DNA from: a virus | Length of the DNA: 64,000 nt | Strand: one strand, 5' to 3' | Virus record (IMG/VR): IMGVR_UViG_3300045988_164340 | Span: 96,001-160,000 of that record | Part shown: one piece after another, positions 681 through 31,255 of the stretch | Layout: each line of letters starts with the position of its first letter | How positions within the stretch are numbered: the first letter of the stretch is position 1 | Notes under the pieces: generated by a model | The model's database searches: none | The model's input: the letters and a program-made list of their open reading frames with translations, nothing else | What the model was told of the DNA's origin: nothing | Made by a program: the position numbers and the translations under genes

Positions 681-695
681 GTTAAAAATAAATTA

Positions 696-725: not shown

Positions 726-735
726 TTGTTTTCTA

Positions 736-764
736 TTGACAAGAAAGGAAAATTGTGTTATTCT
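736..764 (+). promoter_or_regulatory. sigma70-type promoter
   Basis: TTGACA 736-741, 17 nt, TATTCT 759-764, TGTG just upstream of -10. Confidence 0.6.
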
Positions 765-806
765 TTATATACAATCACAATTATATTAAGTGAAAGGTGT
801 ATTATT

Positions 807-1049
807 ATGGGCTATTTTCGTAATTTAACTAATGCAGAACTTTGGTCGGCTTGTTCAGAGCTAAAAGAGATTGAAAAAAAGAATCCTCCAAAAAACAAAG
901 AGAATTGGCCTATTAAGTACGGAAGCTATTTTTCTAAGGCAGTAGATTATTATGACCATTTCGTATCTATGCCAGTTACAGTAGCAGTAAGCGAACTTAA
1001 ATTTGAGGTAGAAAGACGAGGTATTATTAATGACTGTAAAAGAGTATAA
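807..1049 (+). CDS. hypothetical protein
   Basis: ATG 807 after GAAAGGTG SD; the track start at 726 lies inside the promoter. Confidence 0.6.
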   Translation: MGYFRNLTNAELWSACSELKEIEKKNPPKNKENWPIKYGSYFSKAVDYYDHFVSMPVTVAVSELKFEVERRGIINDCKRV

Positions 1050-1458
1050 TGAATGGCGTAAAGAGTTTGGTCGCGTTCAAGTTTTACTTTATGCTTTTCC
1101 AAATGTTTTAAAGAAAATTGGCAATGAAGATTTAATCAAAGAGCTTAAGATTTTAGGTTATGATGAGCATACTCTTGACTTTCTTAATTCAGCCATGGAT
1201 GCTTTAGAGAAAGCTGAAAAAGAAGAACTTATGAAAGATATGAATGTTCAACCTGACCCAAATACTACTACTCCTAAGAAAGCACCTGTTGCACCTGAAG
1301 AGCCTAAAAATCCTTCTATTTCTAATTATCATATTCAACCTTTTTATTGTGATAAGTGTATTCATAGTTGGGGCGTAGATTGTTTTAGAGACCCTGTAAA
1401 TGATATACCTTGTCCTAATTATAGAAGAGACCCGCCCGATGGAGGTTTTTACGGATAA
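1030..1458 (+). CDS. hypothetical protein, Cys-rich C-terminus
   Basis: Track ORF, GAGG upstream, tiles with neighbours. Confidence 0.6.
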   Translation: MTVKEYNEWRKEFGRVQVLLYAFPNVLKKIGNEDLIKELKILGYDEHTLDFLNSAMDALEKAEKEELMKDMNVQPDPNTTTPKKAPVAPEEPKNPSISNYHIQPFYCDKCIHSWGVDCFRDPVNDIPCPNYRRDPPDGGFYG

Positions 1459-2399
1459 TGAGAGTTTTATCTTTGTTTGATGGTATTTGTTGCGGTCATC
1501 TTGCACTTGAGAGAGCTGGAATTAAGATTGATTCTTATGATGCTTATGAAATTGAAAAGAATGCAATTAAAGCCACAGAAACAAATTTCCCTGATGTAGT
1601 TCAGCATGGAGATGTAACCATAGAAGATTTTACCAAATACAAAGGTAAAATTGATTTACTTATTGGGGGTTCTCCTTGTACAAATTTGAGCATGGCTGGT
1701 AATGGTCAAGGATTAAAAGGTTCTCAAAGTAAATTGTTTTATGAATATGCTCGTGCAATAAAAGAAGCCCAACCAAAATATTTTTTGCTTGAAAATGTAA
1801 TTATGAAAAAAGAATGGGAAGATATTATTACAAATATTCTTGGAGTAGAACCCATTGAGATTAATTCTTCTTTTGTTTCAGCACAGAACAGACGTAGACT
1901 TTATTGGACTAATATTCCTAACGTAACACTTCCCGAAGATAAAAACATTACTCTGGAAGATATTCTTGAAGATATTGAATTTTCTAATCCTGCGGCGATT
2001 AGAGGTCGTAGATTAAATAAAGCCACTATTGTTGGTCGCAGATTAGATAAAAATGGCCATAGAAAAGATACGGATAAAACAATTCCTATTACACAATGTC
2101 TTGAAGTCCGCGCTACAAACACAGACAAATCAAATTGTCTCACTACTGTAGACAAGGATAATGTTCTTACGCCACTTCCTATTGGTAGACATCCAGATGC
2201 TTTTAAAAATAATTTACCTTTTAGATATTACACTACAAAAGAAATGTGTCGTTTACAGACTGTTCCTGATGATTTTCTTAATATGATTCCAGATAGTGCA
2301 GCAAGAAAGGCATTAGGTAATGGATGGACAGTAGATGTAATTGCTCATATCTTTAATTTTCTTCCAGATGAATATAAGATTCCAGAGGTAGACACATGA
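1458..2399 (+). CDS. DNA (cytosine-5)-methyltransferase
   Basis: Motif I LSLFDGICCG, motif IV GGSPCTNLS, motif VI LLENV, motif VIII QNRRRLYW, motif X GNGWTV. Confidence 0.9.
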   Translation: MRVLSLFDGICCGHLALERAGIKIDSYDAYEIEKNAIKATETNFPDVVQHGDVTIEDFTKYKGKIDLLIGGSPCTNLSMAGNGQGLKGSQSKLFYEYARAIKEAQPKYFLLENVIMKKEWEDIITNILGVEPIEINSSFVSAQNRRRLYWTNIPNVTLPEDKNITLEDILEDIEFSNPAAIRGRRLNKATIVGRRLDKNGHRKDTDKTIPITQCLEVRATNTDKSNCLTTVDKDNVLTPLPIGRHPDAFKNNLPFRYYTTKEMCRLQTVPDDFLNMIPDSAARKALGNGWTVDVIAHIFNFLPDEYKIPEVDT

Positions 2400-2587
2400 A
2401 ATTTATTGTAACTGAATTACCCGCTTATTGCGGAGATTGCGTTTTTTGTTCTGATTTTTATTATGATGTGTGTAACATTAGTAAAAGGGATTGCCCATTA
2501 TCAAGATTAGAAGACTGTCCTTATCTTGTAACTATAAACGAATATTTAGCTTCTAATAATGGTGAAAAAGGATTGGAGAATAATTAA
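2396..2587 (+). CDS. small Cys-rich protein
   Basis: Track ORF overlapping upstream stop (ATGA); several Cys pairs. Confidence 0.55.
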   Translation: MKFIVTELPAYCGDCVFCSDFYYDVCNISKRDCPLSRLEDCPYLVTINEYLASNNGEKGLENN

Positions 2588-2953
2588 ATGAGCTACGATA
2601 TTAGTTATAGAGTCCAATGTAAAGATGACCCCAAACTTTGGGCTGATGTTGGAAACTGTGAAGCAAATACAACTTGGAATTTGCGTGAAATGATTCGAAA
2701 GTCAACAGGCTTAGAATGGAAAAATGAAGAAGATAACGGTCTTGTAAAAGATGTTATTCCTTTTATCATTCATGGTTTAGAAGAGCTTGAAAGATTCCCA
2801 AATAAGTATAAACAGTACGAATCTCCTAACGGTTGGGGTACAATTAGCGGATGTAAAAATTTCTTTACTCGATGTATTTTAGATTGGACTACTTTTACAG
2901 AAGATAGTTGGACTTCTCCATATAAAGACATCGTACATTTTTGGATTGTATGA
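2588..2953 (+). CDS. hypothetical protein
   Basis: Track ORF, GGAG upstream. Confidence 0.6.
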   Translation: MSYDISYRVQCKDDPKLWADVGNCEANTTWNLREMIRKSTGLEWKNEEDNGLVKDVIPFIIHGLEELERFPNKYKQYESPNGWGTISGCKNFFTRCILDWTTFTEDSWTSPYKDIVHFWIV

Positions 2954-3150
2954 AATCAAATCGACATTTAGTAAATCTAAATTTGGCAAATTGTTTATTT
3001 TATTTATATTATTTTATTTTAATTGGAATAGCAGGATTAGATAATTCAACTGGAGAAATATTAACTCCTTTTTGTTTATTTATAAGTGGTTGTTTATTTA
3101 TGATTGCTGTTCATTTTTTCAAACTTTATTTAAAGGACAAAGAAAAATGA
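2941..3150 (+). CDS. small membrane protein
   Basis: Track ORF; two hydrophobic segments. Confidence 0.5.
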   Translation: MDCMKSNRHLVNLNLANCLFYLYYFILIGIAGLDNSTGEILTPFCLFISGCLFMIAVHFFKLYLKDKEK

Positions 3151-3374
3151 CGATTGAAAGACTAAGAGATATTCTCAATGATATAGCAAATGGTGCAAAT
3201 TGGGAATTATACAAAAACTCATTAGTAGTAATTAGCGTAGAAGATTCTAGAAACACTGTGGGAAGTAGACCTTATACAAAAGTTCGCTCAGTAGGCATGG
3301 GCTTTGATTGGGAAACAGGTCAATTTAGAATTGAACCTGAAAATAAATTAATGGAGGTTAGTAAAAGAAAATGA
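3147..3374 (+). CDS. hypothetical protein
   Basis: Internal ATG 3147 (MTIERLRD) overlaps upstream stop; track start 3072 would overlap the previous gene. Confidence 0.55.
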   Translation: MTIERLRDILNDIANGANWELYKNSLVVISVEDSRNTVGSRPYTKVRSVGMGFDWETGQFRIEPENKLMEVSKRK

Positions 3375-3622
3375 ACACTACTCAAGTTGCTTTGTGCATC
3401 ATTCTTGCTATCGGAGTTTTAACAATTTTCTTTTTAGCAGGAACTATTATTGGTGGTATCCACGCTTATTCAAAAGCTTTTGCAGAAGCCGAAGAAACCC
3501 ATAAAAATTTAGATGAGGCTAAAGAAAGTCTTATCAAATCTTTAGAAGATAAAGCAGAAGCACAAAAAGAACTTATTAAATCCTATGAAGAGCTGGTAAA
3601 AACTCTTCAAGAAAAAAAATAA
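3371..3622 (+). CDS. membrane-anchored coiled-coil protein
   Basis: N-terminal TM segment then K/E-rich helix; ATGA overlap with upstream gene. Confidence 0.6.
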   Translation: MNTTQVALCIILAIGVLTIFFLAGTIIGGIHAYSKAFAEAEETHKNLDEAKESLIKSLEDKAEAQKELIKSYEELVKTLQEKK

Positions 3623-3629
3623 TAAACCC

Positions 3630-3658
3630 TTGACAGGAAACTAATCTTATGGTATATT
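3630..3658 (+). promoter_or_regulatory. sigma70-type promoter of large ncRNA
   Basis: TTGACA 3630-3635, 17 nt, TATATT 3653-3658. Confidence 0.7.
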
Positions 3659-3664
3659 AAGATT

Positions 3665-4248
3665 GTCCCAAGGGAAAGGATGAAAAAAGTGCGGAAAGGA
3701 TTCCCACTGATTTGTACTACACAGGCCTGATAGACAAATCACGTTTTTACCTGTAAGACATACAATTGAATATTCAATAATAGCTGAGATGCAATGACTT
3801 CGAAAGAAGCACCCTTCATAGGAATAGGAACTATGAAGATACTAAGAGCGGCAAGCTCTCCATTTGAAAGTTAATGGTGGAAATTCTTGCAAGAATCACG
3901 AAATCCTACCTTCCGAATTCTTGCTCGGTAGTGTAGGTTGATTGCTAACTAAAGATGTTGGACAAAGAGCGTCGCATTTCTTTAAATGCTAGGACCGGAG
4001 GCTCATAGTGAGGTGAACGTTGTCTATTCCTCACCTTTAATAAGAATCCGATGGGGGTCGGAGCGCTTATTATCGTATTTGAATAACCTACGGGTAGGTT
4101 GTTCGCAGTTTTACAGAAGACTTATAAACACTTGTCCGTCGAAATGGGTAGACGCCAGAGGAAAAAGTCTCAATGAGTGTAGGAAGTAATATAACGGGGA
4201 ATAACTTCTAAGTCTTCACAATTTATTGAATTAGCTAATTTAATAAAA
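3665..4248 (+). ncRNA. large structured non-coding RNA, class unknown (ROOL/GOLLD-like size)
   Basis: About 580 nt between consensus promoter and terminator; no credible ORF or SD; visibly G+C-richer than flanks; hairpins 3814-3838, 3845-3859, 3883-3896, 4008-4034, 4085-4100. Confidence 0.6.
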
Positions 4249-4293
4249 GGTCTCATAATTAATTTAATATTGATTATGAGACTATTATTTTTA
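4249..4293 (+). terminator. intrinsic terminator
   Basis: ggtctcataat / attatgagac stem then tattattttt. Confidence 0.65.
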
Positions 4294-4308
4294 TAATAGA
4301 GGTGTAAC

Positions 4309-4794
4309 ATGGAAAATTTCTGGAAGACATCACTGGAAAATAAGAAGAAAGAACTATCTGAGATTAACAAGGATTTAAATAATCTCACAAGAAAATCTTA
4401 TGATGAATATATTATGAAAGAACTCGCTCCAAAGCTGATTGGGAATTGTTATATTCATCGAGGACATTATATTATGATTGTTCAACCTCCCAAATTGTTA
4501 GAAGGAAGATGTGAGGTTAATTATTCTTCTTCATGGGGTTGTATTGAGATTAACAATTTTGAAGATGAAACACCTTATGGTTGTTATACAGATTCAGAAA
4601 TTGATGTAGCTCCTTATTATAATGAAGACATTGATTTGTTTTTCCTTTTAAATTATCCGAAAAATTTTGACCATTTTCAACCTATTTCTCGTAACGAATT
4701 TAATGCAAGAATGGATGAAGCGGTTAGGAAATCTAGGGAACTAATTGAAAAAATGGAGAAAAATATTACTCCTCGCAAATTTTATAGGTTTTAA
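4309..4794 (+). CDS. hypothetical protein
   Basis: Track ORF, GAGGTG SD. Confidence 0.65.
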   Translation: MENFWKTSLENKKKELSEINKDLNNLTRKSYDEYIMKELAPKLIGNCYIHRGHYIMIVQPPKLLEGRCEVNYSSSWGCIEINNFEDETPYGCYTDSEIDVAPYYNEDIDLFFLLNYPKNFDHFQPISRNEFNARMDEAVRKSRELIEKMEKNITPRKFYRF

Positions 4795-9823: not shown

Positions 9824-10039
9824 ATGTATATTCCAAAAAGTAATAGATAGATATCTTTACTTCCTTTTACTGGTTGTGATGAAAAGAAATGCCCATGGAA
9901 GGATTGTGTAAGGCATCCTGAAAGTGGATTTACATATAATTCCATGGGACATTTATCTTATCTTTGTAAAAAATTTAAAGAAGTCCCGAAAGAGGTTGAA
10001 GAAACGAAGGAGAAAGAAACAAAGACAAATGATTCTTAA
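9824..10039 (+). CDS. hypothetical protein with in-frame TAG (codon 9)
   Basis: TAGGAG SD, ATG 9824; TAG 9848-9850; frame stays open 62 more codons to TAA 10037. Confidence 0.55.
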
Positions 10040-10385
10040 AATTATTATTAACCTTTGGCGATTTGTTTTTATTCTGGATGTTTTAGTTTTCTTTTATCTT
10101 GTCAGAGAAGTTACAAAATATGTAAACGATTTCTTTGACGCGAGAAATGTTAAGATTAAAGTATCCAGTACTGGTTCTGCAATTCCAATCATTCAAATTC
10201 TTATTCTAAGTGCTCTTCCAATCATTAATATTATTTTAGGTTGGACATGGATATTTAATTACCAAAAATTTATGAAATTAACTTGCATTAAGCTAAATGA
10301 ACATCTTTATAAGATGGGCATCATTTCTGATGAATTAAAAGATGAATTTTATCATAAAGTCATTAAAGATTTTGAAGGGTCTTAA
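10029..10385 (+). CDS. membrane protein
   Basis: ATG 10029 (MILKIIINLW) overlaps upstream stop; TM segments. Confidence 0.55.
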   Translation: MILKIIINLWRFVFILDVLVFFYLVREVTKYVNDFFDARNVKIKVSSTGSAIPIIQILILSALPIINIILGWTWIFNYQKFMKLTCIKLNEHLYKMGIISDELKDEFYHKVIKDFEGS

Positions 10386-10390
10386 TTGAT

Positions 10391-10882
10391 ATGAAAACTG
10401 AAAAAGAAGTAATTCCTGCTCAAGAAAAAACATATTGGGTTGCAGATGACGGTCGTAGATTTTCTACCGAAGAAGAATGTTTCGCTTATGAAAAAAGAGC
10501 AAGTATTCGTGATGTAATGGTTGAGCGCTCCTTCTTGGTTCCTAACCTTTACGAAGATAAAGTAGAGTTTTGGTTTATTTTAGGCGAAGAAGCTACTCCT
10601 ACTTATCTTATTAGTTACCTTGAATATTTTTTAAGAATTTATATTAGCTCTTGGCAAAAAAAGACTTTGGCTCAAGTTTGTTTAGAACAGAAAAAAGACC
10701 AGAAGTATTATCTTATCGGTTTAAAAATTGATAATAACGGAGATAATTCTACTTTTGAAGTTCTTACCATTGATTTCGCAGAAGAAGAAACAAAAGAAGC
10801 CATCACTGATTACGAAAAAATCTTGAAAGAATACTCTGCTCTTAGAGAAAGACTGTCTATTTTTCCTGAAACAAATCAATAA
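10391..10882 (+). CDS. hypothetical protein
   Basis: Track ORF. Confidence 0.6.
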   Translation: MKTEKEVIPAQEKTYWVADDGRRFSTEEECFAYEKRASIRDVMVERSFLVPNLYEDKVEFWFILGEEATPTYLISYLEYFLRIYISSWQKKTLAQVCLEQKKDQKYYLIGLKIDNNGDNSTFEVLTIDFAEEETKEAITDYEKILKEYSALRERLSIFPETNQ

Positions 10883-10886
10883 ATAC

Positions 10887-10915
10887 TTGACAACTCTTTT
10901 TAGGTCTGGTATACT
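10887..10915 (+). promoter_or_regulatory. sigma70-type promoter
   Basis: AAATACTTGACA, 17 nt, TATACT. Confidence 0.7.
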
Positions 10916-10955
10916 TTGAATATAAAGTAAATCGTTCCTGAAAGGAGTTGTTTAA

Positions 10956-11294
10956 ATGTATAATCGTAATTTTCATAATAAGATTGGCTCGGATAAAATC
11001 AAGCTCACTTTCCACTCTCGTGACCGTGGTTTGGAAAGATTGGGTATTAAGAATGAAAGAGAACTTCGTCAGTTAGCTTGCAATGCTCGTAATAAAGGCA
11101 TCAATCTTGATGCTGTAACTATTTACAACTACGAAAAGATTGGATTAACCAATGAAGAAATGTATGCTTTTAAGCGTCGTTTCCGTACCAAGTCCAACAG
11201 CGAACGTATTTATTATCACAAAGGTTTTGTCTTTGTATTCGCTGATAAAAATGCTTGCACACTTAAAACTGTAATTGAATTAAAAAATATTTGA
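10956..11294 (+). CDS. hypothetical protein
   Basis: AAAGGAG SD. Confidence 0.65.
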   Translation: MYNRNFHNKIGSDKIKLTFHSRDRGLERLGIKNERELRQLACNARNKGINLDAVTIYNYEKIGLTNEEMYAFKRRFRTKSNSERIYYHKGFVFVFADKNACTLKTVIELKNI

Positions 11295-11303
11295 GGTGGT
11301 ATT

Positions 11304-11699
11304 ATGATTTATAGTGCTAAAAACAATGTAGCAGAAAACAAAATTGTTACTTGCTTCCCTGTTCTTGTGGTTAAGTTTGATAACCATAAATGTGTTTATT
11401 TTATTAAGCATGACTATCTGTATTGTGTTGACAATTATTTCTTTTCACAAATTTGTGAAGAAGACAATATTCTCTGTGCTAATTCTGAAGGAGAAGCTTT
11501 GGCCTTGATTGGAGAAATTAAATCTCACCCAAATAGTGAACAACTAATTAACACTTTTATTAAAGCAGTTAAATCTTACAATAATTCTCCTAATGACCCT
11601 CAATATCTTGAACATTATTTTTCTGTTGTTCGAAAAGAACATGTTATTACCACTTCTTTAATGGACAATAAATACCACACTTCCCCTGAAAACTTTTAA
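11304..11699 (+). CDS. hypothetical protein
   Basis: GAGGTGG SD. Confidence 0.65.
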   Translation: MIYSAKNNVAENKIVTCFPVLVVKFDNHKCVYFIKHDYLYCVDNYFFSQICEEDNILCANSEGEALALIGEIKSHPNSEQLINTFIKAVKSYNNSPNDPQYLEHYFSVVRKEHVITTSLMDNKYHTSPENF

Positions 11700-11710
11700 G
11701 GAGGTTTAAC

Positions 11711-12220
11711 ATGGATAACTATGAAGCTATGAAGCCTTGGGAGCATGGAAAGATTGTTGAAATTCATCATGATATTAAGTCTATTTCTGTGTATCCTGTC
11801 GTTTATGAAAACAAAGATTTGTATGTCTGTCGAGTATCAGGTTCTACAGAAGTAATTATAATTAGAAAAAATTCTTATCAAAATTACGTCTTTGAATCTT
11901 ACGAAAAGTATATGAGTTGGAGACGAAACAACCCTTTTGCTAGTCTTAATAGCAGACGTTTCTTTGTATATATCCCCAAGAATGGGAAAATTTCTTTCGC
12001 TGATAATTTTCCTGTTAGAGATTCTCTTGATGAAGCATTGGCTAAAGCTGAACACGCTTATGATGAAGAGGAGAAATCTTTTAAGCATTTGCAAACCAGC
12101 TTTGAATATTATGCCAATAGAATTGAAGACACAAAAGAAACTTTAAAACAGAAAATGTCACGTATTGAAAATATTAAGGCTCAAATTGCGGAAAGGGATA
12201 AGAATAAAAATGGTATTTAA
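11711..12220 (+). CDS. hypothetical protein
   Basis: AAGGAGG SD. Confidence 0.65.
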   Translation: MDNYEAMKPWEHGKIVEIHHDIKSISVYPVVYENKDLYVCRVSGSTEVIIIRKNSYQNYVFESYEKYMSWRRNNPFASLNSRRFFVYIPKNGKISFADNFPVRDSLDEALAKAEHAYDEEEKSFKHLQTSFEYYANRIEDTKETLKQKMSRIENIKAQIAERDKNKNGI

Positions 12221-12542
12221 TATTACTGATAATGGTCTTGCTCATTCTAATATGGAGACTTATTATTGTATTGGTATTCCCCGAAAGAAACTCCCTCTTA
12301 ACTATGGTGAATCACCGTCTTATGGTTTTGCTAATAGAGGTTGGTCTAATATGCCTTATCTCATTGCAGAAAATTTCACTCTTTCTTGTTTTTCTTTTGA
12401 CAATGAAAAATGTGCTAAGGAATGGTGGAGTAAAAATAAAAAGTTTTTCCTTGAAAATAGAACTTATACCAAGGAATATGACTTTAATTATGCAAAGATT
12501 ATCAAGGTAGAAATTGGTAGTAAGTATACTATTATGCGTTAA
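12210..12542 (+). CDS. hypothetical protein
   Basis: ATG 12210 overlapping upstream stop. Confidence 0.55.
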   Translation: MVFNITDNGLAHSNMETYYCIGIPRKKLPLNYGESPSYGFANRGWSNMPYLIAENFTLSCFSFDNEKCAKEWWSKNKKFFLENRTYTKEYDFNYAKIIKVEIGSKYTIMR

Positions 12543-12553
12543 AGGAGAATACT

Positions 12554-12946
12554 ATGGTTAACCTTAAAAATCAGCCTGTGTATTATATTACCATTAAAGC
12601 AAACCGAGATTCTGAAATTAAGACTCTTTATGCTGGTGAACACTTTAGTGAAGGTGGTTTTTTCATCAATTTCGATTCAGCAAAACGCTTTAGTTGCCCT
12701 CTTTCCGCCGAAAAGTGGTTTAAGTTTAATTTCGATGAAACCAATCTTCCTCCTGAATATTATGATTGGACAAGCATCACTATTGAAGAGCTTAAACTCG
12801 TTCCTGTTATGAATATCTATCTTTCTAAGGAAGAGACAGTTTCAAATTCTGTAACTCTTGAAACCACCACAAAGCGAGAAAAGCCTAAGCGTACCTACAA
12901 GAAGAAAAAGGTAGAAGACAAAACTGACACCATTCCAGATAACTAA
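12554..12946 (+). CDS. hypothetical protein (YAG...AKRF paralog family)
   Basis: AAAGGAG SD; shares the TxYAG...F..AKRF pattern with 27852 and 28259. Confidence 0.65.
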   Translation: MVNLKNQPVYYITIKANRDSEIKTLYAGEHFSEGGFFINFDSAKRFSCPLSAEKWFKFNFDETNLPPEYYDWTSITIEELKLVPVMNIYLSKEETVSNSVTLETTTKREKPKRTYKKKKVEDKTDTIPDN

Positions 12947-12972
12947 TTCATAAAAATTTAACAACTTAAATA

Positions 12973-13001
12973 TTGACAAGTATCTTTTTTTATGTTAAAC
13001 T
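12973..13001 (+). promoter_or_regulatory. sigma70-type promoter embedded in a terminator-like hairpin
   Basis: TTGACA, 17 nt, TAAACT; gacaagtatc 12975-12984 pairs with gatacttgtc 13015-13024, then T-rich tail. Confidence 0.55.
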
Positions 13002-13077
13002 AATAACAGAAAAGGATACTTGTCCTTTATTTTAATTTAAATTAATCTATTGAAATATATAGAAGAATGGAGATAAC

Positions 13078-14109
13078 ATGGCAACTGTTTAGTATCATTA
13101 TGGTAAAAATAATTCTTTGCTTCGTTGGTATCATCCTATTGTAAAAGGGGTTACTTATAACAATGTGGTGGTAATTGATTGGCCTAAGAGTGAACTAAAG
13201 AGCGCAAGTATAGATATGTGTACGCAACCAAAGCTTAGTCCTGAAAAAATGTATAACCTTTATGGTTATAAGCCTGATGTTGTAACAAACGCTTTCTTCT
13301 TTGATACTGCAAGCGGAACTTCTATCTGGAATTTGAAAAGTAATAATAATGTTTATGCCAAGGATGGTAATTTCTCTAATGGCTGGGGCATTACAAATTC
13401 TGGAAAGATTATGAATGGCGTATTTAACAATGGTGTTGGTTGGAGAGATTTTGGTACAGAATATCCTGCTTTATTTAAAAATAAACAGCCTCAATCTGTA
13501 AAAAACTATGCTGACATTGATTATGAAGCCAAAAGACAGATGTTCGGTTGGACAAAGACAGATGGCAATCCTAAAAACGAAAAGTATTTTATTGTTTCTG
13601 TTGTGTCTGGTGGTATGAAACTTTCCACTGCTCAGAACTTCATTAAATCTCTTTTTCCTGATGTAGATTATTGTTGCAATCAAGATGGCGGAAATTCTAC
13701 TTATACAAACTTTGAAGGAAAGCGTCTTTCTGCGTCTAGTTGGTTAAGACCTGTTGATTCTATTCTTGCTTTCTGGCTTCGCTCTAATGCTGAAAGAGAA
13801 AAAGCAGAAATAGAAGAAAAGAAGCAAGACAAGGCTAACAAGAAAGAAGAAAACCGTCCTAAGAAAACTGGTTATCGTTGTCAGTTAGGAGCATTTAGTA
13901 ATGTAGCTCGCGCAATTACTTATAGAAATGAAATTAGAACTCTTACTGGCGTAATTGATTATTCAACTGCTTTTTGTATTTACGACCGCAAGACCAATCT
14001 CTATAAAGTTCAAGTAGGATTCTTTGCTAAAAAGTCTGGTGCTGAAAAGGTTAAGGCTGATTTGGCTGAAAAGGGATATAATTGTTATATCTGCTATGTG
14101 GAGGAATAA
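13078..14109 (+). CDS. cell-wall hydrolase: phosphodiester glycosidase (DUF2233/NAGPA-like) plus C-terminal SPOR domain; TAG at codon 5
   Basis: GGAG SD and ATG 13078; TAG 13090-13092 in frame with track ORF 13117-14109; NAFFFD and NQDGGNST motifs; SPOR-like YRCQLGAFSN...YKVQVGFF. Confidence 0.65.
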
Positions 14110-14112
14110 ACA

Positions 14113-14328
14113 ATGTCTACCATATTTACTATGCGAGAAGTAACTGAAAAATTAGATAAAATAGCTCAAGATTATAATTCGTTAATTATTTCAGCTTATC
14201 AAAACAATGATGAGTAGAAACAAAAGTATTACAAGGCAGAATTCTACAGGTTAACTTTTGCTTCATCTGAATTGAAAAAATTTGAAGATTGGGGATTCTG
14301 TGCTATAACTTATACTCCTGTCTTTTAA
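14113..14328 (+). CDS. hypothetical protein with in-frame TAG (14215); frame stays open past TAA 14326 to TGA 14484
   Basis: ATG 14113; manual translation. Confidence 0.4.
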
Positions 14329-14476
14329 AGATGGGCTTGTTTATTCCCTAGAAACTATAAATATATAGGTGGTAGAAGCTATCCTTATTCCGAAGATGAC
14401 CCTCCTATCCTTTTTGTTAGCGGAGTAGTTGATGGAATTTTAGACGAATATTTATATAAGGAGTACACTCAAGGAC

Positions 14477-14782
14477 ATGAATGAGAAGAAGTATGAAGTG
14501 ATTTCTGATATTACCTCTCTTATTGATTAGGAAATTGCAGATTTTATCCAACGTATTATTGACAACGATGAAACTTTAGCTACTTTAACTGATACTTTTT
14601 TTATCAGTTATGATTATGAGTATGAAAATGTTTATATTTGCACTACCTATCCACAGTATTTAACTGTAATTAATCACCAACTTTTTAAAGATTTGTGTGA
14701 TATAATTAACGAGTATTATGGATTTTCTGTCTTTGTTAGAAAAGTTGATTCAATTATTAGCATTAAATCTAAGGAAAGCTAA
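14477..14782 (+). CDS. hypothetical protein with in-frame TAG (14528)
   Basis: ATG 14477 (ATGAATGA overlap); open to TAA 14780 only if TAG is read. Confidence 0.5.
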
Positions 14783-14802
14783 CAATTTAATTTAATAAAT
14801 AG

Positions 14803-14831
14803 TTGACAACACCTCTCCTTTATGGTATATT
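14803..14831 (+). promoter_or_regulatory. sigma70-type promoter
   Basis: TTGACA, 17 nt, TATATT. Confidence 0.7.
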
Positions 14832-14859
14832 AAATATACTAAAAAAGAGAGGTGCTTTT

Positions 14860-15420
14860 ATGTTTGAGATTTTGTATGTTATTAGCGGATTTCTTTTTAT
14901 TGTATTTGTTATATTTTCTTTTTGTCTTGCCCATATTGTTTATAAAGATGAAGATGATGGATATCAAAACACAATAATTGATTGGATTAAAGAATATCGT
15001 AAAGATTGGCGTAATTGGACGCATTTAAAGTTTAACGAATGGAAAAAATATTATATTTTAGCTCCTGATGAATGGAGATTAACATGGTTTGCTCCTAAGC
15101 GAACAATTAGAGACAAAAAGGGTCGTTGGGATACAGTTTATATTAACTTTGGTTTTATTGGAAATATTAGATATGTCCTTTTTAAGCATAACATGGAAAA
15201 TAGACGCAGAAAGAATAAAGCTGCTCAAAGTTCTCAAGATAATTTAAGATATGTTCTCGAAGCTGTTCAAGGAGATATTAATAAAATCCAAAAGAAAGCC
15301 GAAGAGGAAATCAATAAAGCCAAAGAAGAAACAAATAAGATTCGAGAATCTTATTTAACCGAAGAATCTTATTTAAATAAAGAAATTGAATTAAAATCTA
15401 CTGATAAATGGGAGAATTGA
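14860..15420 (+). CDS. membrane protein, tandem paralog A
   Basis: ATG 14860 after GAGAGGTG; FGFIGN...KKAEEEINKAKEE shared with the next gene. Confidence 0.65.
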   Translation: MFEILYVISGFLFIVFVIFSFCLAHIVYKDEDDGYQNTIIDWIKEYRKDWRNWTHLKFNEWKKYYILAPDEWRLTWFAPKRTIRDKKGRWDTVYINFGFIGNIRYVLFKHNMENRRRKNKAAQSSQDNLRYVLEAVQGDINKIQKKAEEEINKAKEETNKIRESYLTEESYLNKEIELKSTDKWEN

Positions 15421-15421
15421 T

Positions 15422-16051
15422 ATGCCACTATTAAAAATTGCTATGATTTTACTTTTAGTTACTTTGGTTGGACTTTTTATTTGGTTTCTTTGCTTTCTTT
15501 TGCTTGGTCCACTTGTTTTAAAAGGAATCTTTGATGCTGATTTAGATAATATCAATGAAAAGCGCGAGCACGAAGAATGTACCAAGATGGATTTTGATAA
15601 GTGGTACGACATTTTTTGTTTAAACAATGAGAAATGGAATTTAGGTTGTCTTCCATATTGTCGTCTTGATACAACAAGACAAAGATTTGGAGAAATTATT
15701 ATTACTTCAAATTATTGGAATCATAATTATTGTGTTAAAAATATTTATGTGGATTTTGGTTTTATTGGCAATCTAAAATATTCTCGTTGGCGTCATAAAT
15801 ATCTTAAAAATAAAAAGACCCAAGAAACTCAAGAAAGAGAATTAAAAAATCTTAAATTTATTCTTGAAAGCGCTCAAGAAGATATTGAAATTCTCAAAAA
15901 GCAATCCGAGGAAGAAATTAACAAAGCAGCAGAAACCACTAAAAAAGTCAAAGAGAATCTTGACAAACAAAAGTTACGAAAGATGAAAACAGGGTATGAT
16001 AATGACCCTCCAATGTATTCCATCTTTAGATATGATGACGTAGAGTTTTAA
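15422..16051 (+). CDS. membrane protein, tandem paralog B
   Basis: FGFIGN...KKQSEEEINKAAE. Confidence 0.65.
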   Translation: MPLLKIAMILLLVTLVGLFIWFLCFLLLGPLVLKGIFDADLDNINEKREHEECTKMDFDKWYDIFCLNNEKWNLGCLPYCRLDTTRQRFGEIIITSNYWNHNYCVKNIYVDFGFIGNLKYSRWRHKYLKNKKTQETQERELKNLKFILESAQEDIEILKKQSEEEINKAAETTKKVKENLDKQKLRKMKTGYDNDPPMYSIFRYDDVEF

Positions 16052-16097
16052 ATAAAAGATTTCTTTTATTTGATTAAAATGCTAAGGAGAATATTTA

Positions 16098-16319
16098 ATG
16101 TTTATTTGTTATAATAATTGTTTATTTAATTCCGATAATATTAATTTTATGAGAGTTAATGAAAGAGATATCATAATTGGCTTGATGGGTGAAAATCATA
16201 TTTTGAAGTATGAAAATAAAGACCTTGTAAAAAAGGCTTGCTCTAAAATTCGTGTTGCTATTACAAAGAATTCTTCTATTGTAGATATCTCTGAAAGTAA
16301 ACTTAAGGAGACAACTTAA
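16098..16319 (+). CDS. hypothetical protein
   Basis: AAGGAG SD; N-terminus similar to the next gene. Confidence 0.6.
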   Translation: MFICYNNCLFNSDNINFMRVNERDIIIGLMGENHILKYENKDLVKKACSKIRVAITKNSSIVDISESKLKETT

Positions 16320-16625
16320 ATGATTATTTGTTATGATAATCAAATTATTAATTTAGATATGGGCTGGAGAGCTATTCACATTACTGCCTGTAGAGATTTT
16401 GGCTGGGAAATTTCTCCCTCTGTTTATTCTCTTACTATTGAGCTTAATGATAAATCTTCTTATAACTTGGGTGTTTTTACAGAAGATGAATATTGTTTGG
16501 CAAAAATGATGATGGATAAAATTAAAGAGGGTTTAGCTAATAATATTTCTTTCCTTGACCTTGATGATTACTTGAAAATGTGGAAGAAGAAATTAGAAAA
16601 AGAAAAGGAAGCTAAGAATGGATAA
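16320..16625 (+). CDS. hypothetical protein
   Basis: AAGGAG SD. Confidence 0.6.
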   Translation: MIICYDNQIINLDMGWRAIHITACRDFGWEISPSVYSLTIELNDKSSYNLGVFTEDEYCLAKMMMDKIKEGLANNISFLDLDDYLKMWKKKLEKEKEAKNG

Positions 16626-17307
16626 TGGTTTTAATTTAAAAGAAGATAGAATTACTTTTGACTGTATGCCAGAAGATATGCAAATGAGTGATGCAGGGTT
16701 TAACGCTCTCATGGGATGTACTATTCTTTGGGGATTGATTTGTAATTTCTTCATCTGTATGTTCCTTGAAACACAGGTCTTTAGCTTTGTATCGTCTCAT
16801 CCTCTTCTCTTTATTTTGGGATATTTTGCTCTGGCTTTTCTTGGAGCTGTTATTATTAGTGGTACAGAAAACGCTGTAATTGCTTTCCTCGGATTTAATC
16901 TCATTTGTTTACCTATTGGAGCACTTCTAAGCGTTTATGTAAGTCAGTATACAGTGTTGAGTATTAGCTATGTATGTCTTCTTACTGCTATTATTGTAGT
17001 AATTATGATTGTTGTTAGCACAGTATTTCCAGAGTATTTTTGTTCTCTTGGACATATTCTTCTTGTATTTTTAATTAGTATTATTTTTATTGAGGGAATT
17101 TTAATATTCTTCCTTGGATATGAAGGCCATGTAATTGATTATCTTGTAGTAGCACTATTTTCTCTTTATATTGGTTATGATTGGTACTGTTCTCAGAGAT
17201 ATGCTGCTACACCTTATAATGCCATTAGTTGTGCAACAGACCTTTATCTTGATATTATTAATATCTTTGTTCGTTTGCTCGCAATTCTAGGCAAGAAAAA
17301 AGATTAA
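16618..17307 (+). CDS. Bax inhibitor-1/YccA family membrane protein
   Basis: Multi-pass TM protein; C-terminal DLYLDIINIFVRLLAILG matches the family signature. Confidence 0.7.
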   Translation: MDNGFNLKEDRITFDCMPEDMQMSDAGFNALMGCTILWGLICNFFICMFLETQVFSFVSSHPLLFILGYFALAFLGAVIISGTENAVIAFLGFNLICLPIGALLSVYVSQYTVLSISYVCLLTAIIVVIMIVVSTVFPEYFCSLGHILLVFLISIIFIEGILIFFLGYEGHVIDYLVVALFSLYIGYDWYCSQRYAATPYNAISCATDLYLDIINIFVRLLAILGKKKD

Positions 17308-17311
17308 ATAC

Positions 17312-17340
17312 TTGACAACTCCTTATTTTTTTGGTATTAT
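17312..17340 (+). promoter_or_regulatory. sigma70-type promoter
   Basis: AAATACTTGACA, 17 nt, TATTAT. Confidence 0.7.
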
Positions 17341-17370
17341 TTAAGTATCAAAGATAAGGAGTTGAATTTT

Positions 17371-17640
17371 ATGGAAAAGAAAAAGTACACTTATGATTTA
17401 ACTTTTGAGGAAGTCCTTGAAGAAATTTGGTATAAAAATTGTTGGTATCAGGGTAACAATTTTGCTGATGGTTCTGTTCTTGAAGTTACGCCTGATAAGG
17501 AAATTTATATAAAGACCTTTGTACGTACCGTTTCTCATTCTACTCGTGTATTTAGCTCCCCTCTCATTCTTACTGAGGGAGTTTATGAACAAATGTATCG
17601 TCGTGTATATACTCAACCTGATGCTGAAAGGAGAGTTTGA
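17371..17640 (+). CDS. hypothetical protein
   Basis: ATG 17371 after TAAGGAG. Confidence 0.6.
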   Translation: MEKKKYTYDLTFEEVLEEIWYKNCWYQGNNFADGSVLEVTPDKEIYIKTFVRTVSHSTRVFSSPLILTEGVYEQMYRRVYTQPDAERRV

Positions 17641-17680
17641 TGTTATATCATCTCTCTTTTGAATAGGAGGAACATTATTA

Positions 17681-17995
17681 ATGGAACGCATTAAAAAGGG
17701 ACGCAGAGAACCTACCCGCGACAAGAGAGAAAATTGCAACGTCGTAACCTCTCTTCTTGATGTCAATGGTAACAATATTATTACTGGCAATTTATATGAA
17801 ATTAAGGGTAAGAATCATTCCTATATGGGAAGGGTGTTTTATAATAGGTATCAGAAAGCCTTTGGCGTTTTTATGGGTTGCTGGTACGGAGATAGGAATA
17901 TCTACAATCCCGATAGTTATGGTAAATTCGTAGCCATCCCTAAAGATAATGGCATGAAGAATCAAATTTTTCCTGTTGAAGAAATGGAGCTTTGA
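17681..17995 (+). CDS. hypothetical protein
   Basis: AGGAGG SD. Confidence 0.6.
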   Translation: MERIKKGRREPTRDKRENCNVVTSLLDVNGNNIITGNLYEIKGKNHSYMGRVFYNRYQKAFGVFMGCWYGDRNIYNPDSYGKFVAIPKDNGMKNQIFPVEEMEL

Positions 17996-17996
17996 T

Positions 17997-18203
17997 ATGA
18001 AAATTAAACATATTAAATCTAGAGTTGTTTTACCAGAAGAAAATTACTGGTATGACATTAATTATAATACAGAAATTGCAACTTGTTCTCGTTGTAAACG
18101 TAGAGGAAAAATTAGAACCACAATTACTAAGTGGGGTGGTTACGCAATCAGTAATCCTTATTGTCCCGCTTGTGGTGCTTTTATGAAAAACGGCTGTAAT
18201 TGA
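17997..18203 (+). CDS. zinc-ribbon protein
   Basis: ATG 17997; CSRC...CPAC. Confidence 0.55.
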   Translation: MKIKHIKSRVVLPEENYWYDINYNTEIATCSRCKRRGKIRTTITKWGGYAISNPYCPACGAFMKNGCN

Positions 18204-18211
18204 GGTATAAT

Positions 18212-18514
18212 ATGTCAAAAATTGTTTGTGCTGCTATTAAATTTACAAGCAAAGCAGATGAAGATAACATTATTGTTCTTCCTTGTATTCGTCATGGTGA
18301 TGGATACAAGCAGTTTGCTTATCTTAATTTTGTATTAGCTGGAAATTATTCTCGTGGTGATTGGAACAAAGAAGAAGGCTTCGTTGACAACAATGGAAAA
18401 TTTCATTCCAGAGAAGAAGCATTTCAGCTTGTAAAAGATTCTCTTCCTACTTCTCTTATTTACTTTAAAGAACAGCATAAAGAAACCGAACTTTACTCGG
18501 AGGACTTATATTAA
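18212..18514 (+). CDS. hypothetical protein
   Basis: ATG 18212 after GAGG. Confidence 0.55.
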   Translation: MSKIVCAAIKFTSKADEDNIIVLPCIRHGDGYKQFAYLNFVLAGNYSRGDWNKEEGFVDNNGKFHSREEAFQLVKDSLPTSLIYFKEQHKETELYSEDLY

Positions 18515-27782: not shown

Positions 27783-27811
27783 TTGACCTTTACTTTGTAA
27801 TTTGCTATACT
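27783..27811 (+). promoter_or_regulatory. sigma70-type promoter
   Basis: AAATACTTGACC, 17 nt, TATACT. Confidence 0.65.
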
Positions 27812-27851
27812 GTAAGTACAAAAAGAAAGGAAAGGAAACTGGTGAAGCAAT

Positions 27852-28247
27852 ATGTGCAAAATTTGCCCTCAGTGCGGTGCTATCGCTGAATTTAATGCTT
27901 ACTATGGTCGAGTAACATGTACTCGATGCAACTGGGAAAGTGAAGAAAGCAAATTAACTGTACAGTCTAAATCTGTGACTCATTACGTTATTAAGTTTGT
28001 TTGGAAGGATTTTAATAACTTCATTCAGACCACTTATGCTGGTTATGATTATAATATGACTCATTATAATTGGGGACCTACTCCTTCTTGTGACTTCAAT
28101 GAAGCTGAAAAATTTGACAATATTGAAGCTGCTAAGAATTTCTATAAAAAGTATAATAGTTACTTCAAATTTATCACTGAGAGGGAAAATTCTTCCACTT
28201 ATATTTCCAAAATCGTCATTAACACCGAAGACGTAGAGAAGATTTAA
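27852..28247 (+). CDS. zinc-ribbon protein (YAG...AKxF paralog family)
   Basis: CPQCG...CTRC; TTYAGYDY...EAEKFDNIEAAKNF. Confidence 0.6.
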   Translation: MCKICPQCGAIAEFNAYYGRVTCTRCNWESEESKLTVQSKSVTHYVIKFVWKDFNNFIQTTYAGYDYNMTHYNWGPTPSCDFNEAEKFDNIEAAKNFYKKYNSYFKFITERENSSTYISKIVINTEDVEKI

Positions 28248-28258
28248 AGGAGATTAAA

Positions 28259-28579
28259 ATGAAGAATCAGTTTATCATTGAGTTTACTTATTATGAAAAA
28301 GGTAAAATTCGTACCACTTATGCTGGCTATATCCTTTCTCTTCCTTTTCCTTTCCGTTCTTTCGACCAAGCAAAAAGATTTAAAACTATTGATGATGCAA
28401 GAGAATGGCTTGCAAATATCTTAAAAGACATTAACAACAATCCTGATTTTGCTTTTCCAAGAAGAAAGATAGAATCTGTTCAGTTCCTTTGTATTCAGGT
28501 CTTTGCTGCGGAAGATATTACCGAAAAATATATTTCTAATTCTGAGCGTTTTCTTGAAAAAAATTATCAGCTTAGATAA
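28259..28579 (+). CDS. hypothetical protein (same paralog family)
   Basis: RTTYAGYIL...FDQAKRFKTIDDAREW. Confidence 0.6.
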   Translation: MKNQFIIEFTYYEKGKIRTTYAGYILSLPFPFRSFDQAKRFKTIDDAREWLANILKDINNNPDFAFPRRKIESVQFLCIQVFAAEDITEKYISNSERFLEKNYQLR

Positions 28580-28611
28580 TAAACATTAACAATTATAAAG
28601 AGGGTACTACA

Positions 28612-28836
28612 ATGATTGAAGAGTATGGTTATGAGGAATATTTGAGAAACGCTAAAAACAATCCTACTAAGGAGAACCTTTCTAAGCTCGCTAATTGGTT
28701 TAATTTCTTTGGCGTTGAATATTGGAATGGAGAAGGCTTTGTCATTGATAATAACCATCTTCTTAAACCAATTTTTGACATTAATTCCAAAGAAGAATAT
28801 AATTGCCTTCTTATTATTGGTTGGGAAATTGTTTAA
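28612..28836 (+). CDS. hypothetical protein
   Basis: AGAGGG SD. Confidence 0.55.
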   Translation: MIEEYGYEEYLRNAKNNPTKENLSKLANWFNFFGVEYWNGEGFVIDNNHLLKPIFDINSKEEYNCLLIIGWEIV

Positions 28837-28854
28837 TCTAAAGGAGCTAAAACA

Positions 28855-29148
28855 ATGAAAACTAATTATTATATTGGCGTTCCTGTTAAAAATGATAAAA
28901 AAAGATGCTACTTCCTTTGCAGTAATGATTGCTTTATTACAGAATACTTCTTTGAATCTGATAAATTCCATGCGCTCTCTTTTTCTGATGAGAAGTCCGC
29001 TCGTGAGTGGATTGAAGAATATTATCCCTTCCCTAATAATAGAGAAATCAATATTGTTTGGGACGATTTGTCTACAGAAGAAAAAGAAAACTTCGATTGG
29101 GCTACTTTCTGTATCCTAAAGGAAACTTGGGAAGTAATTGAACCTTAA
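28855..29148 (+). CDS. hypothetical protein
   Basis: AAAGGAG SD. Confidence 0.6.
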   Translation: MKTNYYIGVPVKNDKKRCYFLCSNDCFITEYFFESDKFHALSFSDEKSAREWIEEYYPFPNNREINIVWDDLSTEEKENFDWATFCILKETWEVIEP

Positions 29149-29175
29149 CTGCAAATTATTTTTATAACTTGTTTT

Positions 29176-29218
29176 AAACTTGTTTATCTCATATCGGATA
29201 AACAAGTTTATTTTTTTA
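29176..29218 (+). terminator. intrinsic terminator
   Basis: aaacttgtttatc / gataaacaagttt 13-bp stem then T-run. Confidence 0.8.
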
Positions 29219-29231
29219 TTTTAAATTGTAC

Positions 29232-29260
29232 TTGACAGCTTGACTTTTATATGTTATACT
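29232..29260 (+). promoter_or_regulatory. sigma70-type promoter
   Basis: TTGACA, 17 nt, TATACT. Confidence 0.7.
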
Positions 29261-29328
29261 ATATATGGATTAATAGAATTCGCCATATTGTGCAACTATT
29301 AATACTACTTATGTAAAGGAGATAATTT

Positions 29329-30756
29329 ATGGCTGATTAGAAATAGAGCCTTTATCTTAGAGTTTAGGAAAAATTATCTAATGTTTCTACTGTTAATAGT
29401 TATAAAGAACTTTGTAAATTACTGGACGAACCTGATTATTCTCGTCCTTCAAAAGCTGCTCAACTTAAAAGACAAGAAAAAGAATGGAAGAAATGTTTTA
29501 CATGGAGAAGAAAAAAAGAAAAATATACTTCAATAAAAATAGTTTCTCCTGATGAATATTATTTGGCTATTTTAAAACAGCTTTATCAAAATAGCTCTAT
29601 TTGGGCTTTCTTTTCTTTTTTGAATGTTTATAGTCAATATACTAATAACGCAAGACTTTGTGTTTCTAAAGGAGATATTGCTTTAGCCGTTGGTTTACAA
29701 AATGAAAACTATAAAAATTTTCATGTTTCTTCTTATAGTTACGGTAGAAGATTAGAAGAATATACTTTAGGTTTAAAAGATTCTAAATATCCTTTTGTTA
29801 CTACTCCTAAAAAAGAAATTAGAGAACAAAGAAAAAAAGATGATGAATCTGCTTACGGTTTAACTAAACGTACACAAAATTTACTCGATGATTATGATTC
29901 TCATACTTCTAAGCAAAATTATTATCAAGTTGAATCTATGTTAAACAAACTTGAAGAAGAAGGCGCTATTCTTCTTCATAAAACCTTTGTGGGAGGATTT
30001 ATTGATAAAAAAGCACTTCCTTTTGATGCAGATTATTTAACTATATATGAAGAAAATGGTAATTTTTATTTACCTGTTAAAAATGGAGAACCTTTATTAG
30101 TTACTTATTATGAAAGAGCTTTAACAGATGAAGAATTGGCTAACTTCCTTAACTTGCGTGGTTCTATAATGGTTGATTTAAAATGTCATGGATTATCAGA
30201 AGTTTTCATTTCTGGTCAACAAGATGATTTTAATAAGAAACTTTCTAAATCTTAGTTAATAGAATTTGGTGCTTTATTTATTTACCCTTCTTATTTAATA
30301 AATTATTCTTCTGACCTTGTAGCATTAAATCAATCTTATTATAAAACTCTTATGGCTAATTTTTATAATGAATAGCTACTCAAGAAAAATTTAACAGCTA
30401 ATAATAAAGAAACACAACAAAAAATACTTAAACTAAAAACTGAAAGATAGTCTAAAGAAAAAGGCAAGTGCCGAAATACTTTTACTAAGCATGACGGAAC
30501 TGTTGTATTTTCTGATAAAAAAGAAGAAGAAGCAGTACAGCTTTCGCAATATTATGAAGCTTTCTTATACGAAAAGCTAAATAAAGACCTTATTCAACTT
30601 AATTTAGATAAACTTATACCTCAAAATCTTGAATCTCTTTCTTCTAATTCTACAGAAAAAAGCTCTACTTGGGAAAGCTTGTTTAATAAATCTTGGACTA
30701 AAATTAAAAATACTGAAAATTATTAGAAAAATTAGATTATGGTTCCAGACACATAA
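29329..30756 (+). CDS. 475-residue hypothetical protein containing eight in-frame TAG codons
   Basis: AAAGGAG SD and ATG 29329; TAG at 29338, 29344, 29365, 30253, 30373, 30448, 30724, 30733; no TAA or TGA in frame until TAA 30754; absorbs track ORF 29563-30255. Confidence 0.65.
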
Positions 30757-30889: not shown

Positions 30890-30940
30890 AGTAGATAAAA
30901 TAAGGCTTTAATGAACTTTTTAAAGGCTCAAGAGTTTTTA

Positions 30941-31190
30941 CTTCGGCACCGTTATTTTAAAAACCACACGACAGAAAATGAAAGAAAGGTTAGAGTTTGT
31001 TGAAGTGAGCCTTGCGAACGATTACAAACTCTTACTCCTTTCTTCATTTGGCAGTCGTAACCGCGAGAGGATGTTTGCATTATGAAAGAGAGAGCATTAG
31101 CGACGAATGGAGCGTAATGCGACCATCTTTCATAATGATACAAACACCGCATCACGGTGGATTATCGGCGAAGCACCTTTGTAATTATAA
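30941..31190. ncRNA. candidate structured RNA, about 250 nt, strand and class unknown
   Basis: G+C-richer island without SD-led ORF; stems gagtttgt 30993 / acaaactc 31024; cattatgaaaga 31078 / tctttcataatg 31126; tgaaagaaagg / cctttcttca enclosing stem. Confidence 0.4.
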
Positions 31191-31255
31191 ATAGTTACTC
31201 AGAAGTACCATTGTATACTTTTCTTAGTTTTTATTATCTTTTTCTTATTAAACTA

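Follow-up and report, generated by a model that had tools for sequence, protein, structure and literature searches.

The phage genome that contains the window analysed here, which is a stretch of 64,000 nucleotides (nt) corresponding to positions 96,001 to 160,000 of the IMG/VR record IMGVR_UViG_3300045988_164340, very probably uses genetic code 15 as a whole: UAG is read as glutamine (Gln), UAA and UGA are the only terminators, and a phage-encoded suppressor tRNA would give the recoded codon a role in timing. In this genome, TAG is restricted in where it is used as a sense codon, not in its meaning. The observation is a further example of a described phenomenon and is not new in kind. Furthermore, the recoding is not a hidden feature, since the gene calls of the collection already run across in-frame TAGs on the source contig and since the stored products of the homologues that we looked up differ from a code-11 translation.

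The window represents the internal positions 109,722-173,721 of a metagenome scaffold of 216,183 bp (ENA ERZ28577511, COST17-1_SAMEA4545300_METAG-scaffold_13) that corresponds to a gut phage genome. Together with both flanks, 81.6 kb of this source contig were analysed. More than 20 related contigs (108-221 kb) are present in IMG/VR; relatives were collected by exact DNA matches and by protein-guided scans. Genes were called with a simple gene caller that combines a coding score and Shine-Dalgarno sites, the codon-usage score being trained on the long open reading frames (ORFs) of the window.

TAG acts as a sense codon and terminates no gene

Six genes of the window carry in-frame TAGs:

9824-10039, plus strand: 71-codon gene, function unassigned, TAG at codon 9 (position 9848), supported by relatives
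13078-14109, plus strand: 343-codon SPOR-domain protein, TAG at codon 5 (13090), supported by relatives, homologues and Pfam
14113-14328, plus strand: 5' part of a ~122-codon gene, TAG at codon 35 (14215), supported by relatives
14477-14782, plus strand: 101-codon acidic protein, function unassigned, TAG at codon 18 (14528), supported by relatives
25583-27733, plus strand: 716-codon protein, function unassigned, TAG at codon 664 (27572), followed by a 52-codon extension to TAATGA
29329-30756, plus strand: gene with eight TAGs (8-TAG gene), 475 codons, function unassigned, supported by its open frame, homologues and an AlphaFold model

An earlier note on this DNA had proposed these ORFs, and their starts, ends and in-frame TAG positions are all correct, none of them containing an in-frame TAA or TGA. 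Across the TAGs, the coding score remains above zero without a change of frame, the exception being the 52-codon tail of the 25583-27733 gene. In the 29329-30756 gene, all eight in-frame stops are TAG (positions 29338, 29344, 29365, 30253, 30373, 30448, 30724 and 30733; codons 4, 6, 13, 309, 349, 374, 466 and 469). Inside called genes, TAA and TGA together occur out of frame at a rate of 8.6% per codon and TAG accounts for 13% of the out-of-frame stop triplets. The 167 codons that follow the first internal TAG of the 8-TAG gene would be open by chance with P = 3e-7, and all eight of its stops would be TAG by chance with P = 1e-7.

Moreover, when TAG is treated as sense, 110 genes are called in the window, of which 89 stop at TAA, 21 at TGA and none at TAG, in agreement with the claim that the other genes stop at TAA or TGA. 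With code 11, just two genes end in TAG, and both belong to those claimed to be read through. In the window and its flanks, none of the 135 genes ends in TAG (P <= 1e-3 even if TAG made up 5% of the stops). Since TAG terminates nothing in 81.6 kb of the source contig, the reassignment is genome-wide, and the proposal that recoding is restricted to certain transcription units is not supported. Reading TAG as sense increases the coding density only from 79.8% to 82.1%, and, contrary to what had been claimed, the apparent gaps between genes do not all vanish. The gap at 14329-14476 persists because a TAA at 14326 separates the C-terminal half from the gene starting at 14113.

TAG is read as glutamine

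Comparison of related sequences indicates that UAG is decoded as Gln. In the 8-TAG gene, TAG 30373 is replaced by CAG in three relatives and, conversely, CAG 29578 and CAG 30538 of the window are replaced by TAG in relatives. In an alignment of the 8-TAG family that extends to homologues with 40% protein identity, eight columns have TAG opposite CAA or CAG. The five sequences compared, which range from at least 96% nucleotide identity to 40% protein identity, all have TAG at codon 13, and this codon corresponds to an invariant Gln in the protein alignment. In addition, the sequence past each TAG is conserved in the full-length homologues of the 8-TAG protein. The smaller genes provide further examples: TAG 14215 is a Gln codon in L006, and in the 14477-14782 gene of L016 a further TAG occupies a position that is Gln in the others.

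Over a dozen assemblies, made independently in several projects, contain the same TAGs, which rules out assembly error and pseudogenisation. The claim that TAG is translated in these genes is upheld. The interruptions are exclusively TAG and no frameshift accompanies them. It is hardly conceivable that sequencing or assembly introduced the in-frame TAGs by error, that they mark pseudogenes, or that UAG encodes pyrrolysine. The only point in favour of pyrrolysine is the 'tRNA-Pyl' label that ARAGORN automatically gives to any CUA anticodon; against it, TAG aligns with Gln codons and no pyl gene occurs among the proteins scanned, which included a minority of those of the window.

A candidate suppressor tRNA upstream of the window

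The decoding of UAG would most likely be due to a phage-encoded amber-suppressor tRNA with a CUA anticodon, tRNA(CUA), located last in a tRNA array. As had been noticed before, there is no tRNA gene in the window; none was found within 10 kb on either side, nor in the relatives' region to the right of the window. To its left, all 11 close relatives carry an array of 4-12 tRNA genes. The last gene of this array is a tRNA with a CUA anticodon, right after tRNA-Arg(UCU), in nine of the 11 relatives, and the two others (L071 and L072) carry, at this same site of the genome, a tRNA(CUA) that is split in the anticodon loop. The syntenic site (about record position 96.8 kb) would lie ~13 kb upstream of the window and co-oriented with the plus-arm genes; the genome from which the window comes may be expected to carry its own tRNA(CUA) there.

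In the tRNA(CUA) of L072 (3353-3645), U35 is followed by an insert of ~220 nt that ends in G and matches the whole Rfam model Intron_gpI with 35.6 bits and E = 1e-7, short of the 50 bits set as gathering score. The split tRNA of L071 (3366-3680) has an insert of ~220 nt without any Rfam match. In both phages, splice sites placed according to the group I rule (the exon ends in U and the intron ends in G) restore the CUA anticodon. Group I introns are found in anticodon loops of bacterial tRNAs, namely the cyanobacterial tRNA-Leu(UAA) and tRNA-fMet. The split tRNA(CUA) of L072 is like them in that its insert matches Intron_gpI end to end. Unlike them, it has a sub-threshold score, its L071 counterpart is matchless, splicing is predicted, and the feature lies outside the window. 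If introns do split these tRNAs, those phages would need RNA self-splicing for their code change.

The suppressor locus is hypervariable, with only 52-87% identity among its tRNAs, whereas the phages are 80-95% identical elsewhere. In L066-L076 (locus at about 100-4700), at least two unrelated types of tRNA(CUA) occur, one of 71 nt without CCA and one of 75 nt with U1.U72, G73 and CCA. In the same sequences, Rfam tRNA matches of 133 nt precede tRNA-Arg(UCU) and may be interrupted tRNAs as well. TAG-rich GIY-YIG-like ORFs are located just downstream of the split tRNAs in L072 and L071. In a nearest-neighbour comparison, the suppressors are 67% similar to tRNA-Gln, which is too weak to infer their identity.

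Distribution of TAG along the genome

Around the window, TAG occurs 1.04 times per 1000 codons and is carried by 8 of the 135 genes. In the late region, for which the data come from relatives with a 99% identical marker protein and not from the source contig, there are 6.0-7.6 TAGs per 1000 codons; TAG makes up ~20% of the Gln codons and is present in 15 of 21 genes. This region begins ~8 kb beyond the right end of the window with a gene encoding a PF05183 (YonO-like) RNA polymerase of 930 amino acids (aa), located at L004:1-1296 and L026:10001-12793, and the genes after it carry 2-7 TAGs each. The late region encodes an endolysin with CHAP and PG_binding_1 domains (4 TAGs), the terminase large subunit and tail-fibre-like proteins. 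At L026:18464-21038, a GIY-YIG/NUMOD3 homing endonuclease gene devoid of TAG interrupts the terminase large subunit gene, the flanking parts of which contain 5 and 2 TAGs. According to these relatives, structural and lysis genes are rich in the recoded codon and the remaining regions poor in it. The polymerase gene heading the TAG-rich region suggests that the late genes are transcribed by the phage polymerase and gated by TAG.

The two arms of the window also differ. The minus arm (38300-64000, ~36% GC) contains 131 CAG, 57 CAA and no TAG, whereas the plus arm (1-38300, ~31% GC) contains 81 CAG, 137 CAA and 13 TAG (CAG versus TAG between arms, Fisher P = 7e-6).

Strong promoter-like sites are found on the plus strand at 9194, 10887, 12973, 14803, 22594, 27783 and 29232, and terminator-like hairpins at 27743 and 29175. 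Those that adjoin TAG genes are:

12973-13001, plus strand: promoter-like site before the TAG genes of 13078-14782, matching the consensus at 10 of 12 positions, with TG; the following strong site is at 14803
27743-27769, plus strand: terminator-like hairpin directly after the TAATGA of the 25583-27733 gene, also conserved in L001 and L008
29175-29210: terminator-like hairpin before the promoter-like site of the 8-TAG gene
29232-29260, plus strand: promoter-like site of the 8-TAG gene, ahead of this monocistronic cassette

As for the grouping of TAG genes in units of their own, the three genes of 13078-14782 and the monocistronic 29329-30756 gene indeed look like all-TAG units, but 9824-10039 and 25583-27733 share apparent promoter-like units with TAG-free genes. 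The proposed restriction to transcription units is therefore right only in part.

5'-proximal TAGs and a proposed timing of translation

Host ribosomes would be unable to finish TAG genes before the suppressor tRNA accumulates. TAG would thus act as a translational timer, because the genes that carry it would await this accumulation. In the TAG-poor region, the TAGs of TAG genes lie mainly in the first 20 codons, where an unsuppressed stop would abort the product immediately. In this region, 10 of 23 TAGs are within codon 25, versus 2.3 expected (Poisson P = 1.6e-4; a count as high was reached in 0 of 20,000 permutations), a bias that concerns few genes and that the choice of start sites could inflate. 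Conservation of these 5' TAGs extends to 12-14 relatives (85-97% nucleotide identity), save for one Glu codon in L016. For instance, the gene at L003:6915-7385 has TAG at codons 8, 13, 17 and 44, with no Met in at least 90 residues past the cluster.

We tentatively propose, while judging it rather less than probable, that, in a handful of genes of the otherwise TAG-free early region, TAG clusters conserved within the opening 20 codons (4/6/13; 8/13/17; 5; 9) are gates that abort translation at once and make these genes dependent on the suppressor, and that the suppressor locus is hypervariable, often replaced and, in some members, split by a group I-type intron. The 5' TAG clusters and the intron-split suppressor locus are mentioned neither in the text of the preprint of Borges et al. 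(10.1101/2021.08.26.457843) nor in the top results of our literature search, and are possibly new points. If the 5' gates and the intron-split tRNA hold, they would offer simple and testable access to the way in which, and the time at which, a phage changes its host cell's genetic code.

A neutral origin of the TAGs has to be weighed here, although we consider it doubtful. TAG would then be a rare synonymous Gln codon produced from CAG by C-to-T changes and purged only from the genes translated before the tRNA is made, and the TAGs of the window would not be adaptive regulation. Accordingly with this explanation, TAG and CAG interchange among sequences that are at least 96% identical (three variable sites in 29329-30756), the positions of TAG in late genes look uniform, and a low GC content with CAA as the main Gln codon of the plus arm would make TAG rare anyway. 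However, it does not account for 5' TAGs that are over-represented and, apart from the Glu codon of L016, invariant in 12-14 relatives, nor for codon 13 of the 8-TAG protein, at which TAG is constant among the sequences compared even where protein identity falls to 40%; in addition, the complete lack of TAG in the CAG-rich minus arm needs selection.

Several points weigh against a genome-wide code 15 with a phage suppressor that acts as a timer. The suppressor is known from relatives alone, the marker protein of which is 77-91% identical. A host using the standard code is an assumption, on which the TnpB match is uninformative. No release-factor or aminoacyl-tRNA synthetase gene was found in the few proteins scanned, ~100 kb of the genome being outside view. 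The late genes have no 5' TAG bias (5 observed versus 4.1 expected). The TAG load is not set by position alone, because the GIY-YIG gene located in the TAG-rich terminase gene is TAG-free. The genes of the window appear to be accessory or early-type, 'early' and 'late' being deduced from gene content. Finally, four of the six TAG genes have no known function and none is recognisable as a lysis gene. The earlier note had related the recoding to the published idea that it delays lytic functions; the TAG-rich late and lysis genes of the relatives and the syntenic tRNA(CUA) fit this model.

TAG genes of the window

In the 9824-10039 gene, TAG 9848 is conserved in 13 relatives and is the Glu codon of L016. 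The N-terminal MYIPK..R is conserved, and code 11 gives no usable start past the TAG.

In the 13078-14109 gene, TAG 13090 is conserved in all 14 relatives. Homologues with 45-55% identity begin at the Met that corresponds to the start of this gene and have the motif YxYGKxNSLL in common with it; in the window, this motif lies between the TAG of codon 5 and the next possible start and is reachable only by reading through TAG. The search of the six TAG proteins against Pfam and PHROGs gave a single domain, the SPOR peptidoglycan-binding domain, which is the sole match of this protein. Homologues with 35-55% identity have an additional PF09992 phosphodiester glycosidase domain. A wall-directed enzyme is plausible in view of these homologues, but the term 'cell-wall hydrolase' that had been applied to the product is overstated for a protein that itself matches SPOR only.

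The coordinates and the single TAG of the 14113-14328 ORF were correctly described, but this is not a complete gene: it is cut by a lineage-specific TAA at codon 72 (14326). Six relatives have CAA (Gln) at this codon, and there the ORF continues for ~50 codons and overlaps the start of the 14477 gene. In the window, the frame behind the TAA is still intact, leaving a remnant of the C-terminal half that extends to ~14479. The TAA is apparently a strain variant or a nonsense mutation of recent origin.

In the 14477-14782 gene, TAG 14528 is conserved in 14 relatives. The gene caller proposed an alternative start at 14432, which was rejected as all relatives keep the start at 14477.

For the 25583-27733 gene, the coordinates, the TAG and the TAATGA end that had been reported are right, but the 52-codon extension is weakly supported as coding sequence. 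Its coding score is -0.02, versus 0.47 for the body of the gene. Among four relatives compared, only L008 has the TAG followed by an intact extension, and in this part roughly every second nucleotide at which L008 differs from the window alters the amino acid; the extension displays no sign of purifying selection. The three others (L001, L023 and L010) have short, unrelated C-termini that end within ~10 residues of the TAG point. For L001, a shared extension had been considered and was rejected, since the protein alignment revealed a short unrelated tail.

These data may also be explained if TAG 27572 is a leaky terminator, competition by release factor 1 giving a main product of 663 aa and a minor one of 716 aa, or if the extension is untranslated open junk. 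The low coding score, the early ends of the three orthologues and the nonsynonymous differences all point in this direction, yet we regard it as somewhat unlikely: TAG terminates no other gene, the 52 codons are open both in the window and in L008 (P = 0.009 by chance for each), and the ORF stops right before a terminator-like hairpin. Under code 15, the extension is probably translated by default, with no functional support.

The 8-TAG gene occupies the same locus in all relatives seen. Its protein family is small, with 45 representatives among 1.8 billion proteins, and has no Pfam, PHROGs or annotated viral match. AlphaFold yields a confident model over all 475 aa, with a predicted local distance difference test (pLDDT) of 86.8 and a predicted template modelling score (pTM) of 0.82. 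The modelled fold looks like several winged-helix-like domains; the weak fold matches are winged-helix DNA-binding domains, no PDB match has an E value below 0.78, and the other matches of the fold search are uncharacterised viral proteins only. The first 70 aa recur with 72-79% identity in two proteins of 316 aa (P0005 and P0006), the rest of which has a GIY-YIG-like motif, judged by eye only. Fragments of the 8-TAG protein are present in databases (32, 73 and 122 aa, and 170 + 102 aa in 'Siphoviridae sp. ctLqe90') and look like standard-code calls broken at TAGs. Standard-code gene calling of such a genome splits or shortens real genes.

The uneven TAG load may, alternatively, reflect the origin of genes. 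TAG-rich stand-alone genes would be mobile cassettes of the homing-endonuclease type that circulate among code-15 phages and import their own codon usage, and TAG would silence them until late. The 29329-30756 gene is monocistronic with its own promoter-like and terminator-like sites, and it has its N-terminal 70 aa in common with the two GIY-YIG-like proteins. Furthermore, a gene encoding a 460 aa HNH / endonuclease VII-like protein just beyond the window contains 5 TAGs, the GIY-YIG-like ORF beside the suppressor tRNA of L071 contains 7, and an intron endonuclease is preferentially recoded in the phages of Borges et al. (10.1101/2021.08.26.457843). We nevertheless hold this explanation to be unlikely. 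Neither Pfam, PHROGs nor the fold search detected a nuclease domain in the 8-TAG protein, the gene keeps one locus in all relatives, the GIY-YIG gene within the terminase gene has no TAG, and the GIY-YIG reading of P0005 and P0006 comes from inspection by eye and not from Pfam.

Relation to known recoded phages

Borges et al. (10.1101/2021.08.26.457843) described code-15 gut phages that include the Jade and Sapphire clades, with genomes of ~200 kb; in-frame TAGs are present in 26% of Sapphire genes. Like these phages, the one studied here is large (~216 kb) and low in GC, uses TAG for Gln and has TAG in a minority of its genes. Both also have recoded structural and lysis genes and a phage suppressor tRNA (known here from relatives), as well as a heavily recoded homing endonuclease and a terminase gene interrupted by a mobile element. 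The agreement with the Jade and Sapphire clades themselves concerns genome size and code only.

The code-15 crAss-like phages of Peters et al. 2022 (PMC9523058), which were validated by metaproteomics, have genomes of ~100 kb and infect Bacteroidota. They share with our phage the use of TAG for Gln, a suppressor tRNA (again known here from relatives) and recoded late genes. They differ from it by their size of ~100 kb and by their Bacteroidota hosts, whereas the signals found here look Bacillota-like. Lak megaphages and phAss-1 (PMC10607447) are likewise uncultured gut phages with tRNA arrays that reassign TAG in part of their genes, but their sizes differ (>500 kb for Lak and 136 kb for phAss-1) and no sequence relationship was apparent, the GenBank phage collection giving no match by megablast or tblastn.

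The promoters and Shine-Dalgarno sites look Bacillota-like, and the lineage is probably one of large code-15 phages infecting Bacillota. With its more than 20 related contigs, this lineage lends itself to a study of the genes that come under suppressor control.

Other features of the window and its vicinity

The proteins of the window include a C5 DNA methylase, a TnpB/Cas12f-like protein, two PcfJ-like proteins, DUF932, DUF6551 and GP88-like proteins and many products of small ORFs. No Rfam match was obtained in the window and self-BLAST revealed no dispersed repeat. The TnpB/Cas12f-like (IS605 OrfB) gene is located at 20860-22179, with a long hairpin downstream (22566-22611); the best match of its product in bacterial genome contigs has 32% identity and is uninformative on the host.

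The HNH / endonuclease VII-like protein of 460 aa is Cys-rich and is encoded at L004:6976-8358, i.e. about 64705-66087 in window coordinates, on the minus strand, just outside the window. The arm around this gene with its five in-frame TAGs is otherwise TAG-free.

Downstream of the 8-TAG gene, a GC-richer stretch of ~270 nt (30925-31195) forms long hairpins, with a minimum free energy of -82.4 kcal/mol (z = -5.2), and belongs to no Rfam family. One of its 27-mers has a single exact match among IMG/VR contigs, in a contig that carries the locus of the 8-TAG family (L008). Four relatives have the stretch with 98-99% identity; one of them is L023, in which the neighbouring 8-TAG protein is only 65% identical.

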